Shown here: one piece after another, positions 481 through 38,410 of the stretch
Layout: the number at the start of each line of letters is the position of its first letter
How positions within the stretch are numbered: the stretch's first letter is position 1
Assembly: GCA_964016885.1 (NCBI GenBank)
Contig: OZ024743.1
Span: 255,750,001 to 255,814,000, forward strand
Direction: 5' to 3'
Source of the DNA: Eledone cirrhosa
Taxonomy: Eukaryota
Length of the DNA: 64,000 nucleotides
Program-made: the position numbers and the translations under genes
The notes under the pieces: generated by a model
Databases searched by the model: none
What the model saw: only the letters and a program-made list of their open reading frames with translations
What the model was told of the DNA's origin: nothing

Positions 481-738
481 ATAAGTATGTACACGTACAT
501 ACATATATGTATACAGACGTACAGTAGTATGTATATTTGTCAGTATTGAACAAACGAGCAACGATGGTTGCTAGACACTATGGCTTAATACAGGATGTTT
601 GTTTACAAACACACCGAGCATTATAATAAATGTTCGGTGAATCCATACGTACATATATATATGTGTGCATGTATGTATATATATATACATACTACTGTAC
701 GTCTGTATACATATATGTATGTACGTGTACATACTTAT
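481..738. repeat. Perfect 56-bp inverted repeat with ~146-bp spacer
   Basis: 481-536 is the reverse complement of 683-738. Confidence 0.9.
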
Positions 739-796
739 ATTTAAGTAACAGCCGTACTAAGAGTGGGAAATGAAATTCTGTTTCATTTTTTCCGTT

Positions 797-897
797 TATA
801 TATATATATATATTTATATATATATATATATATATATATATATATATATATATATATATATATATATATATATATATATATATATATATATATATAT
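797..897. repeat. (TA)n microsatellite
   Basis: Direct reading. Confidence 0.95.
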
Positions 898-911
898 CGA
901 ATTACAAATTT

Positions 912-1723
912 GAGTTAAAGACCCACAATCATCCCCTATATTTTAATGAGCTCAAGGAACAGATTGTGGGTCCTTTATAAATCAGCATACAGAGAGAGGT
1001 ATACATAAAGATATGTTTTCACATACTTTATTTTGAGCATGTCCAGATGTTATAGTAATAATTGAATGGTTAGTTCCTTTTAATATATTCTTTTAATTAA
1101 TTTGTATTCCCCATTCCCTTTGTAGTTAATATGTTCCTCACACTGATGGTTTTCTGTCTCCTATAATTGAACACATATCTCAATGTGTACTTCTCTCAAT
1201 ATGCTGATTTATAATAAGCCCGGAATCTGTTCCTTGAGCTCATTAAATTACAGGGGATGATTGTGGGTGTTTAACTCTACTTTTGATATAATTGTTCCAG
1301 TTTCATTTGTATATATGAGTAGAGCTTCTTAAGTTGAATGGTTCTGAGCTGTTGTTTTTAGCAGACTTAGGTCTATTCACACCACCATGGACTATAAAAT
1401 GTACATATGCTTTGTCTATACCATGTGCGTTTTTTTAGTTATCTGATAGAGTTTTAGAAGTGAAGACTGTATTGATAGGGCATCCGCCGTTGGGCTACAC
1501 TACAATATGTAACTTACACTTGAAATAGCAAAACATGCTCTATTTTGAGTGTGTCCAGGTGTTTTAGTTATAATTGGATGGTTAGTGCATTTTAATATAT
1601 TCTTTTAATGTATTTGTATTCACCATTCCTTCCATAGTTAATATGTTCTTCACTCTGGTGGTCTTAAATCCCTTATAATTGAACACATATCTCTATGTGT
1701 ACTTCTCTCTATATGCTGATTTA
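912..1723. mobile_element. Inverted plus partial tandem repeat element, PLE pseudo-LTR-like architecture
   Basis: 912-1016 is an imperfect inverted copy of 1173-1277; 1021-1211 is imperfectly repeated directly at 1533-1723; flanked by microsatellites. Confidence 0.55.
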
Positions 1724-34220: not shown

Positions 34221-34486
34221 TATATATATATATATATATATATATATATATATATATATATATATATATATATATTTATATATATATATATTTATATATA
34301 TATATATGAAAACAGGGAGAAAGAGACGATTATTAGGAACAAACATTTTGTTTTTCCCTTTTTTTTATTTCTCTCTCTTTTTTTTCTGGGTTAGAAAATG
34401 ATTAAAACGAAATGTTTTACTTTGTGTGAAGTGTTAAGATATTAGTTGATTTATTTATTATTTAACAATGCCATTTATTTATTTAT

Positions 34487-35750
34487 TTATATATTTAATA
34501 ATTGTCTATTGAAGTTTGGATGTCTCTTATAGTTGTATTGGCCCCTGCTGTTGTTGTAAGATGGTGTGTAGCTGTGCTGGTTGTTGAGTTTAGGTTGTAT
34601 CGTGTGGTTGAATTGAGCCCTGCTGATGGTGTAGGGTGTGTAGATTTGATGGACGTGGTTATAGGGTGTGAAGTTGTGGTGGTTGTTGAATTTGGGTTGT
34701 ATTGTATGGTTGTGTTGAGCACTGCTGTTGTTGTAGGGTATGTAGACTTGGTGGTAGTTGTAATAGGGTTGTCTTGTGTGGTTATATTGAGTCCAGTTGT
34801 TGCTGTTATATGGTGTGTAGCTATGGTGGTTGTTGTGGTTAGGGTGTCTCGTGTGGTTGTATTGTCCCCTGCTGGTGTTGTTGTAGTAGGATGTGGTTAG
34901 TGGGGGAGGGCAGATTAGGGTTTCCTTATAGTTGGTGTGTGGTTGTGAGGCCCTGTGTGACATGTGTGGTAGTTGTGTATTTTGGGTTCTATGCTGGAAG
35001 TAATGATGGTTGTGGGTTTGTTGTGTGGGGATGTTATGGGGGTTTGTAAGTGTGGGGGATTTTATGGTTTCTCCTGTTGGGAGTGAAGTTGTAGTGTCTA
35101 TCTTGTAGCTGATGTTTCTCTATTACTATATTTGTTGCTTGGGTGTCCGTGTGGAGGATGTAGGAGGTAGAGGTGAGGTGATGCCTTCTTTTGTTGCTAT
35201 GTGAGGAAGTATTGTTTTGTTGTTGTTGTTGGTTGTTGTGTGGTGTTTGGGTGTTGATTGAGTTTTCTTGTTATTATGGTTTTAATGCAGTGGTTCTTGG
35301 ATGTGTGTTCTTTTTGGAAAAGTGTTTCATAGTTAAAGAACCAGGTTTCGTTTATTTCCCAGCGTTGAAGGGATTTTAATTCTTCCTTATTACAGTCCTC
35401 TAACCATAATTTTGAAATATTTTCTAGGGTGGTGTCTTTGGTTATATTGATAATTGCTAGATTAATCTCATCATCGATTGATTTGATCCTATCATCATTT
35501 ACTTCGGCTCTCAATTTAAGGAGTTCAATTTCGGTTTTTATGTTATCAAGTGCCATTCTTTCCTTAGGCGTCTTTGTGTCTCTGGTTCGTTTGGGATGGA
35601 TTTAAGTTGTAGTTTGCGGGGGATGATTAATGGGGATAAGTTAATCCATTTTTCATAGATCTCCGCTTTGTTATTGTTTTTTATCATCTTCCAAAAGGAG
35701 AATTTCCTGTTTTTAAGTGATGTGTACCATTGTGGTATTAATTTGTTTTT
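34487..35750 (-). pseudogene. Frameshifted unknown ORF: helical/coiled-coil region then Asn/His/Tyr-rich repeats
   Basis: ORF pieces 35538-35750 ([25 protein letters not shown]), 35197-35556 (heptad-like) and 34487-34963 (QYNHTRQP repeats). Confidence 0.6.
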
Positions 35751-35905
35751 TGTATATATATATATATATATATATATATATATATATATATATATATATA
35801 CATATATATATATATATATATATATATATATATATATATATATATATATATATATATATATATATATATATACATATATATGCATATATAATATATCAGA
35901 TCAAA

Positions 35906-38410
35906 AGAAAAATATATTGTTTTACATAGAGAGGTTGAAAAACCGTTGGAAGATAATGTATGAATTAAAAGAATTTGAAAATTAACGAAGAGAAAAATAA
36001 TGTAAAGTTAAGGTTTGTATATTGAAGGGTTTAATAATATGTGCGATGAAAAGAAATTGTTAATATGTATTAAGAATAATATTTAAGGGTTTAATAATAT
36101 GTGCAATGGAAAGAAAATGTTAATATGTATTAAGAATAATATTTAAGGGTTTAATAATATGTGCGATGGAAAGAAAATGTTGATATGTATTATTAAAAAT
36201 AGCAAAGGTAATGTAAGTAAGGATATATTGTGAAAAGAGTAGAAGATAGGATGAAACATGAAAGTGAGAAAAAAAATAATGAATTGAGGATGAATAATCT
36301 AACGTCAAAAAAATGTTTATGTTTACGAATGATTTTTTCAAGGTGATATAAAGTAAGAATATATTGTATTGTGTAATAATTGTTTCTATGTTAGGCACAG
36401 TGAGAAAAGGTACAGATTAGGGGTTAGAAATTAAAAGAAAAAGAAAAGAAAAGGAAAAGGAAGAAAGGGAAGTGATAAATAGGAGTGATATAGAATGAGT
36501 AACAAGTATTATATAATGTATAATAAATAACTTTGAAATAAGGTAGAAAGATGGGTATATTTTTAAAGAAGTATATATATATATATATATATGTGCCTTT
36601 GAGAAAAGGATTCTAAATTGATAAAGTTTTGGATATTAGCTGTATACTTTATGGAATGTTCTGTGGAATTTATGCAAGCAGAGAGAAAACAAGTCAGTGC
36701 GTCTATTTATTATAGAATCTAAATTAGATATAATGGTAAATTTTACATTTAGACAGAGATTGTAAGTTTTGGATAGAGAACTGTTCAAGTATGGAACAGC
36801 AGAAGAAACCTTTTTCCAAGAGATGTTATATTTAATATTTTTGTCTTTCAATGACCATATGAGTTCTGAGAGAGCCGTGTTGGTTCTTTTAAGTTGGTAT
36901 TTAAAAGACGAATGATGATTATAAAGACGAGCTTTAAAGGAGGTGGAAGTGGAGCCAAAATAGGTGAAGGAATTGGTGTCAGTTATAACTTTACATTCGT
37001 AGATTAACTTTTTATCAAGACAATGGTTGTTGAGAGGACATTTAATTTTAACAGGGCAATTGCAATTGCGATTAGAGAGATTATTAACGAGTGACCTAGT
37101 GTTATCTATAGAAGGAATTATACTGGAGAAATTATTTGCGATAGGAATAATAGTTTCTTGATTTAGAATGGGATTAAGAACATTTAGCGAAGTTGTGTTT
37201 GCCGTTATTCCATAAAGTATACAGCTAATATCCAAAACTTTATCAATTTAGAATCCTTTTCTCAAAGGCACATATATATATATATATATATATATATATA
37301 TATATATATATATATATATACTTCTTTAAAAATATACCCATCTTTCTACCTTATTTCAAAGTTATTTATTATACATTATATAATACTTGTTACTCATTCT
37401 ATATCACTCCTATTTATCACTTCCCTTTCTTCCTTTTCCTTTTCTTTTCTTTTTCTTTTAATTTCTAACCCCTAATCTGTACCTTTTCTCACTGTGCCTA
37501 ACATAGAAACAATTATTACACAATACAATATATTCTTACTTTATATCACCTTGAAAAAATCATTCGTAAACATAAACATTTTTTTGACGTTAGATTATTC
37601 ATCCTCAATTCATTATTTTTTTCTCACTTTCATGTTTCATCCTATCTTCTACTTTTTTCACAACATATCCTTACTTACATTACCTTTGCTATTTTTAATA
37701 ATACATATCAACATTTTCTTTCCATCGCACATATTATTAAACCCTTAAATATTATTCTTAATACATATTAACATTTTCTTTCCATTGCACATATTATTAA
37801 ACCCTTAAATATTATTCTTAATACATATTAACAATTTCTTTTCATCGCACATATTATTAAACCCTTCAATATACAAACCTTAACTTTACATTATTTTTCT
37901 CTTCGTTAATTTTCAAATTCTTTTAATTTATACATTATCTTCCAACGGTTTTTCAACCTCTCTATGTAAAACAATATATTTTTCTCAGTTATAAAAGCTA
38001 TCTCTCTCTCTCTATCACCCATCTCTCCTCCTATCTCATCCTTCCTCATTATACTCCTCCCCCTCCATTTTTTACTCTCATCTCCTCCTCTTTTTCACCC
38101 CCCCCCCTCAAAACATTTTTTCCCCCCAATATCACACATCAATCTAAAACTACTTTTCATATGTTGATTTAAAACTGCACTATCCACAAGTGTTTTTTAA
38201 CCTTCATATCATGTCTTCCTATTTTATCTGATGAAAACACAAATGTTATTGCATGATGATATTTGTTTTTGAAATGCGCATAATAAAATACATGGAACTC
38301 TTTTAACCATCTTTTGATCTTATATATTATGTATACTCCAGTCCTACAAATTGTAGAGTGCTTCTTATCCGATATCTGCATTGCTTTATTGTACTACAAT
38401 AAAACTCACC
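35906..38410. mobile_element. Young 5'-truncated PLE with ~750-bp near-identical inverted arms
   Basis: GIY-YIG ORF 36636-37206 on minus (CNCPVKIKCPL, LIY..TYFGST); arms 35906-36657 and 37207-37985; right arm continues to a hammerhead. Confidence 0.9.
38220..38290 (+). ncRNA. Type I hammerhead ribozyme
   Basis: TATTTTAT-CTGATGA-[long hairpin]-GAAAT-GCGC-ATA-ATAAAATA: palindromic ATGCGCAT helix III, 8-bp helix I. Confidence 0.9.

Follow-up and report, generated by a model that had tools for sequence, protein, structure and literature searches.

Head-to-head insertions of Penelope-like elements and retrozyme-like repeats in (TA)n microsatellites of Eledone cirrhosa pair one short with one long 3' end

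Introduction

Based on a 64,000-nucleotide stretch of the Eledone cirrhosa genome (hereafter the window: positions 255,750,001 to 255,814,000 of contig OZ024743.1, C4, in the 3.0-Gb assembly GCA_964016885.1) and on related copies elsewhere in that assembly, we found that inverted (fold-back) insertions of Penelope-like elements (PLEs) and of their putative non-coding dependants share one geometry. The insertions belong to identifiable families and lie in (TA)n microsatellites, each family has two fixed 3' end sites (a short one, without tail, and a long one, with a tail), insertions carry one end of each kind, and the point at which the two arms invert is free. The head-to-head structures are probably the product of two strand-specific reverse transcriptions, one from the short and one from the long start site.

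In the L1 elements, an inverted 5' segment arises by twin priming, in which the second target strand primes a second cDNA; what is inverted then comes from further upstream in the element and does not repeat the 3' end, and two fixed start sites are not known there. In PLEs, which are the closest retroelement relatives of the telomerase reverse transcriptase (RT), how the inverted ends and the one-sided tail are built is named as an open question both by Frangieh et al. 2024 (PMC11167929) and by Craig et al. 2021 (PMC8557442). The architecture itself (inverted arm plus one-sided tail), the clades and the retrozymes were known already; the literature searched, outside which stood subscription papers, Repbase, figures, bioRxiv supplements and most of the supplement of Craig et al., held no account of the pairing rule, of the longer tails or of the twin stems described below. 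The one-short/one-long rule, together with a covarying stem, makes the start-site question experimentally testable, and the stem gives a sequence signature by which non-coding retrozyme-like repeats can be assigned to a helper clade.

Pairing of short and long ends

The window consists mostly of (TA)n runs, PLEs and fragments of RTE-type LINEs (long interspersed nuclear elements), and it holds nine inverted structures, labelled A to I by position (Table 1). Every one of the corresponding families is dispersed, with more than 1,100 first-look candidates each in the genome; per search, 40 candidates were scored and 30 fetched. In the seven families scored for this feature, a 3' end adjoining (TA)n is found at one of two sites, which lie 35-90 bp from each other. 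Pairing was followed in 260 non-redundant stretches, in which 85 inverted insertions were traced and 2 at stretch edges dropped; nine segmental-duplication copies of B were excluded from the count, and family D stands outside it because nested insertions break its long untranslated region (UTR).

Seventy-nine of the 83 traceable insertions join a long to a short end, the others being three short-short pairs and one long-long pair (binomial p 4e-19 against 50%). Family A contributes 19 long-short pairs out of 20, plus the long-long one; for the 63 pairs from the other families the automated calls were 53 long-short and 10 short-short, which became 60 and 3 on re-reading, since diverged tails were recognised in seven of the ten. 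The rule also holds in F, G and H, for which the queries lacked the family tail (31 of 33 long-short, p 1e-7).

The geometry of the arms bears on how such pairs could be made. Arms range from about 20 bp to 3.3 kb, the inversion point differs by copy, and many copies have no inverted arm. Of 42 asymmetric pairs, 24 have the tail on their longer arm and 18 on their shorter one; in these 18 the longer arm is tail-less, so that each arm includes sequence that the other lacks, an outcome beyond simple fold-back copying. Additionally, arms are more alike within than between insertions (median similarity 97.4% vs 95.3%; 34 of 46, Wilcoxon p 0.0009); this suggests either a single source (transcript or locus) or conversion afterwards.

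An alternative to two reverse transcriptions is a single one whose product then folds back and primes itself (perhaps with an antisense template), the tail being left by endonuclease resolution of the intermediate. Self-priming has been proposed before (PMC3846280), as has this origin of the tail (PMC8557442), and it would suit both the greater similarity of arms within insertions and the 17 near-symmetric hairpins among the 63 non-A pairs (nine of them family E at one palindromic spot), some of which it may indeed have produced. As an explanation for the insertions in general it is unlikely: each arm has sequence absent from the other in the 18 asymmetric pairs (and likewise in F and I of the window), both ends fall on fixed sites beside copies of one stem, and the start sites determined in vitro coincide with both ends of the tail (PMC11167929).

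Stems beside the end sites

The tails from a de novo scan form 56 clusters, 19 of which start with RCTC followed by GAGY 5-65 nt on, against 1.1 expected from shuffles; the usual fold has a 4-bp stem, an inner helix that varies and, on the 3' side, a bulge of 2 nt. Families F, E, I, G and B, and a further one, M, have a second stem after the long end in their tandem copies, and by our own reading the end sites of the Hydra-type families lie 2-9 nt before the stems. For a covariation test, selection used the invariant CTC and GAG only and the flanking pair was then scored; it is Watson-Crick in 27 of 33 cases (A-T 13 and G-C 13, with A-C 2 and G-T 0; Fisher p 3e-6). Instead of the stem, AC-rich tails are seen in H and in several more of the short-tailed clusters. 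The motif was also recognised by eye at the termini of four of six published Hydra consensuses (File S7, PMC8557442), namely those of coral (Hydra-2_Amil), sea cucumber (Hydra-1_Ajap, with two stem copies about 60 nt apart, and Hydra-2_Ajap) and copepod (Hydra-1_Crog, with a changed pair), the other two, Hydra-1_Amil and Hydra-1_Obim, being ambiguous by eye.

Two observations on single families can be added here. In D, the arm bearing the open reading frame (ORF) starts 8 nt before the first stem of an upstream pseudo-long terminal repeat (pLTR; 12949-13021), and its second stem, GCAC/GTGC, shows a compensatory change at the usually invariant pair. Family M (L297, L306, L308, L327 and others), with a 78-bp tail and both Hydra-type stems, is the commonest fold-back in the sample (28 of 176 tailed cases), and one of its fold-backs encloses Hydra coding sequence.

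The PLE assignment and the pairing could be right and the stems still act elsewhere, as a DNA signal for the endonuclease, in translation or as a promoter near the ORF start. In tandem copies they do lie just upstream of the ORF start, the Drosophila tail is needed for endonuclease recognition of DNA (work cited in PMC11167929), and A and H show the same pairing with no motif. That the stems serve such another step is nonetheless rather improbable, given that the end-to-stem offset stays within 2-9 nt across families, that the compensatory changes and the one-sided bulge suit an RNA helix, and that the non-coding B and G keep both stems without any ORF.

Proposed mechanism

In the mechanism that we favour, with two strand-specific reverse transcriptions, the endonuclease would cut both strands of the (TA)n target and each target 3' end would prime a separate cDNA, which would start from the short site on one side and from the long site on the other; the two cDNAs would stop at variable points (and thus be 5'-truncated) and then be joined head to head. 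The two subunits of a dimeric RT-endonuclease would bind the RNA at the stems, which would thereby fix two start sites, and the template would be a tandem transcript, or two transcripts of one source. B and G would be moved in trans by a Hydra-clade enzyme, and any long double-stranded RNA (dsRNA) would be a by-product of integration. The two-strand, two-start result obtained in vitro (PMC11167929) would in this way be extended to one start per insertion side.

Several points weigh against this proposal. Seven of the 79 heterotypic calls come from manual re-reading of automated short-short calls, and 245 ends without a traceable partner were excluded, the reason being a stretch edge, a nested insertion, a spurious anchor or the absence of an inverted arm. 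The similarity of arms within insertions could reflect gene conversion, and the near-symmetric hairpins could also be made by self-priming. The roles given to the stem and to the two starts are putative and rest on DNA sequence; the inner helix of the second stem is predicted to fold weakly (about -1 to -4.5 kcal/mol), the families are related, so that the covariation counts are not independent events, and A and H follow the pairing rule without the motif. Finally, the 5' ends of tailed arms are not concentrated at the short site, which leaves no sign of subunits meeting on one pLTR; a collision of the two subunits on one pLTR was rejected on these grounds.

Coding families

On the basis of their sequences, the nine structures are assigned to eight families dispersed in (TA)n: the Hydra-clade PLEs D, E, F (with the stub C) and I, the Neptune-type H, and the non-coding A, B and G. 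PLE frames with RT or GIY-YIG domains are physically linked to C, D, E, F, H and I, here or in other copies: RT and/or GIY-YIG frames lie within D, F and I themselves, and the link is made through L265, L266 and L267 for E and through L242 and L258 for H. Both domains occur in one ORF in D within the window (frameshifted) and, through other copies, in E, F, H and I. Tandem copies were found in L242, L247, L258 and L267, with the order pLTR-ORF-pLTR in L242 and L258, both of the H family. The 136-bp structure C matches F at 98.6% identity (7674-7812 vs 21060-21198), which ties a non-coding mini-palindrome directly to a coding element.

Clades were assigned from motifs and from tblastn among the window's own proteins; Pfam gave a GIY-YIG match for K only (a further Hydra-clade fragment, see below), under the cut-off, and missed the Hydra RT and most endonuclease (EN) domains. 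The Hydra motifs RW[KR], DKT, CxCX5C, CxxC..E and CxH are spread among D, E, F, I and K (RWR/DKT in D, E and F, DKT in I; CxCX5C in D, E, F and I; CxxC..E in E, F and K; CxH in E and K), and no GxKF was found in these five Hydra-type frames. The L242 frames of H show GLKF, DKG, RYLDD, a CX4CxxC linker and, at the C terminus, GIY-YIG, motifs that point to a Neptune-type element and on which the choice between Neptune and Nematis rests. The Hydra-clade families show the insertion preference for (TA)n. Canonical hammerheads occur at 22 of 30 loci in E, at 27 of 30 in I and in both window copies of K; the D core box is present in 23 of 34, while the core is altered in 64 of 66 copies of F and in all 36 of H. 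Tails measure 35 bp in H, 58 in A, about 75 in G, about 85 in B and I, 87 in F and about 90 in E, so that only H falls within the published PLE range of 30-40 bp (PMC8557442).

Non-coding tandem-unit families

A, B and G consist of head-to-tail non-coding units of about 420, 510 and 500 bp, respectively. A type I hammerhead is found at 12 of 30 loci in A (minimal) and at 8 of 30 in G, many copies being truncated below it; no intact hammerhead was found in B (0 of 30 loci). In the (TA)n target, the variable inversion points and the one-short/one-long ends they are like the coding PLEs, and B and G carry the Hydra-type stem motif. These features fit non-LTR retrozymes, with self-cleavage and circular RNA as putative properties. 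Neighbouring insertions aside, no PLE frame linked to A, B or G lies within 1.5 kb in 90 loci. A Neptune frame beside A in L255 was rejected as the parent ORF, (TA)n lying between the two. In L256 (6496-7574, G000:C1), a Neptune-type coding fragment stands head to head with a sense copy of G with no microsatellite between them, a possible chimera and a single case. One B insertion lies inside a larger segment that is found in at least 10 places, on small chromosomes and unplaced contigs (L070, L074-L078, L080, L085, L086, L090).

The missing linked frames, together with target duplications that are unreadable within (TA)n, would also suit the idea that DNA transposons with terminal inverted repeats (TIRs) gave rise to the short non-coding palindromes, which would then resemble miniature inverted-repeat transposable elements and be unrelated to the coding PLEs. 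This is largely refuted and very improbable: arm length and inversion point vary by copy, many copies lack an inverted arm, the units form head-to-tail tandems, A and G have type I hammerheads and C is a piece of the coding family F. Both flanks of the short palindromes are (TA)n. No fixed TIRs shared by copies were found, which speaks against the DNA-transposon origin that a sequence-only reading of the window had named as its possible refutation. The same reading had derived all the palindromes from one PLE integration mechanism. A PLE origin is supported for all nine, through the linkage to PLE frames for six and through the shared target, inversion-point and end pattern for A, B and G (in B and G also through the stem motif); as for a single mechanism, one common geometry supports it, and at least two PLE clades are involved.

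Structures of the window

All nine inverted-arm structures described in the sequence-only reading were found in the sequence, with arms 87-99.6% identical and with indels (Table 1). Masked self-BLAST gave E-values of 5e-30 or better for the arms of B, D, E, F, H and I; for the short arms of A, C and G the support comes from the family candidates throughout the genome and not from a self-BLAST E-value. Described as a graded series, the nine in fact belong to the eight families above, and several of their bounds had to be moved: A extends to 796 (its window copy having lost the hammerhead region) and B to 1724, and under the corrected bounds eight of the nine pair a tail-less with a tailed end.

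Table 1. Fold-back insertions of the window, with their arms and an example of the stem.
Feature	Position	Strand	Arms and identity	Description
A	481..796	+	481-536/683-738, 98% (61 columns)	Retrozyme-like family of non-coding ~420-bp tandem units; 481-536 inverted and tail-less, 537-796 in sense and ending in the 58-bp tail
B	899..1724	+	906-1021/1168-1283, 87%	Non-coding ~510-bp tandem-unit family; inverted tailed arm ~899-1021 (left), then 1.4 sense units to short site 1724
C	7652..7787	+	92% over 25 columns	Stub (136 bp) of family F, Hydra clade; inverted arm tail-less, ~21 bp; sense end with 87-bp tail
D left arm	7817..13021	-	10352-11090/13020-13753, 89%	Near-complete frameshifted Hydra-clade ORF (RT 11643-13042, GIY-YIG 11039-11473), 3' UTR, pLTR ending at short site; split by RTE LINE fragment at ~8338-10252
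D right arm	13020..22637	+		Includes pLTR, a hammerhead core, the tail and 3' UTR at 13020-13753, 21173-21546 and 21806-22637; its microsatellite-like UTR holds K, E, F, G and RTE-derived pieces
K	15010..17963	+		Hydra-clade fragment, GIY-YIG 15082-16383, hammerhead at 17889, short end
E	18183..18670	.	91%	Coding Hydra-clade family, pLTR ends head to head; left arm tailed, its tail containing small internal duplications; right arm tail-less; hammerhead (+) at 18571
F	18798..21173	.	18798-19125/20772-21086, 95%	Hydra-clade; minus-strand arm long and tail-less (18798-20772), GIY-YIG frame at 20011-20793; other arm short (20773-21173) and ending in the 87-bp tail
First RCTC...GAGY stem, example	21088..21135	+		Just inside family F tail
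G	21552..21805	+	96% over 27 columns	Non-coding ~500-bp tandem-unit family, type I hammerhead; ~20-bp tail-less inverted arm
H	22653..23913	.	22687-23002/23604-23913, 97%	Neptune-type PLE, pLTR/3' UTR ends head to head; left arm carries the 35-bp tail, right arm tail-less
I	35897..38420	.	35906-36657/37207-37985, 99.6%, 29 gap bases	Hydra-clade; on the minus strand a tail-less arm (35897-37207) that holds a GIY-YIG frame and has lost 327 bp; on the plus strand an arm (37207-38420) holding a hammerhead (38228) and the ~85-bp tail

The largest correction concerns D, which had been taken as a 3.5-kb structure at 10258-13750 and is an outer element of 7817-22637 split by nested insertions. Natural copies in L233 and L228 match 8337-7808, 11112-10261, 13020-13751, 21173-21546 and 21806-22652, and show that 7817-8337, 10253-13753, 21173-21546 and 21806-22637 are one insertion. 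The whole is a 14.8-kb nest with at least six later insertions, in which the (TA)n/(TG)n-like blocks of the PLE 3' UTR are themselves targets of PLEs and RTE elements. Within it lies K, a tenth Hydra-clade fold-back overlooked by the earlier reading, whose inverted arm is an approximately 100-bp tail alone; a second end of the K family, which also has a hammerhead, occupies 27060-27339 (minus strand), beside another Hydra EN fragment (26661-27197). Regarding the one-sided overhangs reported earlier, those of about 90 bp (C and F) and about 35 bp (H) are true family tails; the one of about 425 bp in I is the family tail of about 85 bp plus the 327-bp deletion in the left arm, and the 34 bp at the right end of G are a local duplication and not the family tail of about 75 bp.

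That the palindromes are assembly or long-read fold-back artefacts, the other refutation named in the sequence-only reading, is hardly credible. The window's own F junction was spanned by none of the records covered, which would favour the artefact; the arms, however, differ by 0.4-13% plus indels and carry nested insertions, and in raw short reads from two other samples, opposite-strand joints occur at numerous places close to the F end, while 1,033 and 1,175 reads have (TA)n immediately after the F short site at 21086.

Comparison with known systems

The Hydra-type families are like the Hydra clade of PMC8557442, among whose elements an octopus family (Hydra-1_Obim) is included, in the domain order, the RWK/DKT/CxCX5C/CxxC/CxH motifs, the (TA)n target, the partial tandems and the inverted 5'-truncated copy with an often one-sided tail. 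They differ in their longer tails (75-95 bp), their long 3' UTRs and the altered hammerhead core of F; neither the strict pairing of short with long ends nor the twin RCTC/GAGY stems were found in the portions of that work covered here. H resembles the Neptune-type PLEs of the same source (GLKF, DKG, CX4CxxC linker, C-terminal GIY-YIG, pLTR-ORF-pLTR tandems, 35-bp tail), except for its altered hammerhead core.

The closest biochemical parallel is the Poseidon element of the anole (Anolis carolinensis), for which an AT-rich target, cutting and extension of both strands, a predicted dimer and two internal start sites bounding the tail were reported in vitro (PMC11167929). Poseidon belongs to another clade, its start sites lie in an AC-rich stem-loop, and no start site was assigned per insertion side; no homology to the cut DNA was reported for it, whereas here the ends appear to lie on short TA-like overlaps.

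Non-LTR retrozymes have been argued to be non-autonomous PLE derivatives (bioRxiv 10.64898/2026.07.22.740005). A and G are like the metazoan ones in being 420-500-bp non-coding tandems with a type I hammerhead and many dispersed copies beside PLEs; unlike them, the families described here show the scars of PLE integration (inverted arm, short and long ends), G has Hydra stems and B has no intact hammerhead. The scars and the stems of G are more direct evidence for mobilisation in trans than the co-occurrence and pLTR trees given in that preprint.

Prevalence and dsRNA potential

A de novo scan found 259 fold-backs adjoining microsatellites in 1.55 Mb of fetched DNA, 36 of these (a few being trivial microsatellite hairpins) in 400 kb placed regardless of content. 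Such fold-backs thus occur throughout the genome, of which the window is typical in this respect; its individual insertions are dead, ordinary copies. In the same sample, 14,190 of 399,800 bases (3.5%) lie in non-microsatellite inverted arms (at least 50 bp, at least 90% identity, within 2 kb), and 42% of these bases are in strictly (TA)n-flanked PLE-like fold-backs.

From the DNA, it is plausible that such arms would give long dsRNA and hence a substrate for ADAR or small-RNA pathways, as the sequence-only reading had suggested. Octopus shows exceptional dsRNA potential and hyper-editing, and in a lizard a Penelope element is heavily edited (PMC5625713); the arms, if transcribed, could explain part of the former. 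A wider scheme can be offered tentatively, as a possibility that we hold to be rather doubtful: that a clade-wide RNA stem pair loads both halves of a dimeric RT-endonuclease, that every insertion is therefore made by two reverse transcriptions each specific to its start site, that non-coding ribozyme repeats copy this signal to hitch-hike, and that fold-backs (at least 1.5% of the genome, with near-perfect local inverted arms) are a main dsRNA source behind cephalopod hyper-editing.

Other features of the window

Regarding a host gene, 150 of the 158 non-repetitive frames of at least 55 aa in the window and 200 kb of neighbouring sequence matched no family above the cut-off. An Rfam scan of 1-40000 gave just microsatellite-driven miRNA matches and two sub-threshold type I hammerheads (27218-27262 and 17883-17927). 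The segment at 33900-35752 combines a hammerhead-like pLTR near 34100 (+) with a minus-strand N-terminal frame of Neptune-type likeness, and a related piece lies at 6874-7196. A non-coding element of about 600 bp with RTE-like 5' and 3' parts (13754-14360, also in L214) is a recurrent insertion in TA microsatellites. Two RTE LINEs of the PHD-finger type (43618-46370 and 55574-58344) lie 9 kb apart in opposite orientation, with 88% identity over 2.8 kb, and a degenerate minisatellite (about 20 units of about 50 bp) occupies 47322-48536.

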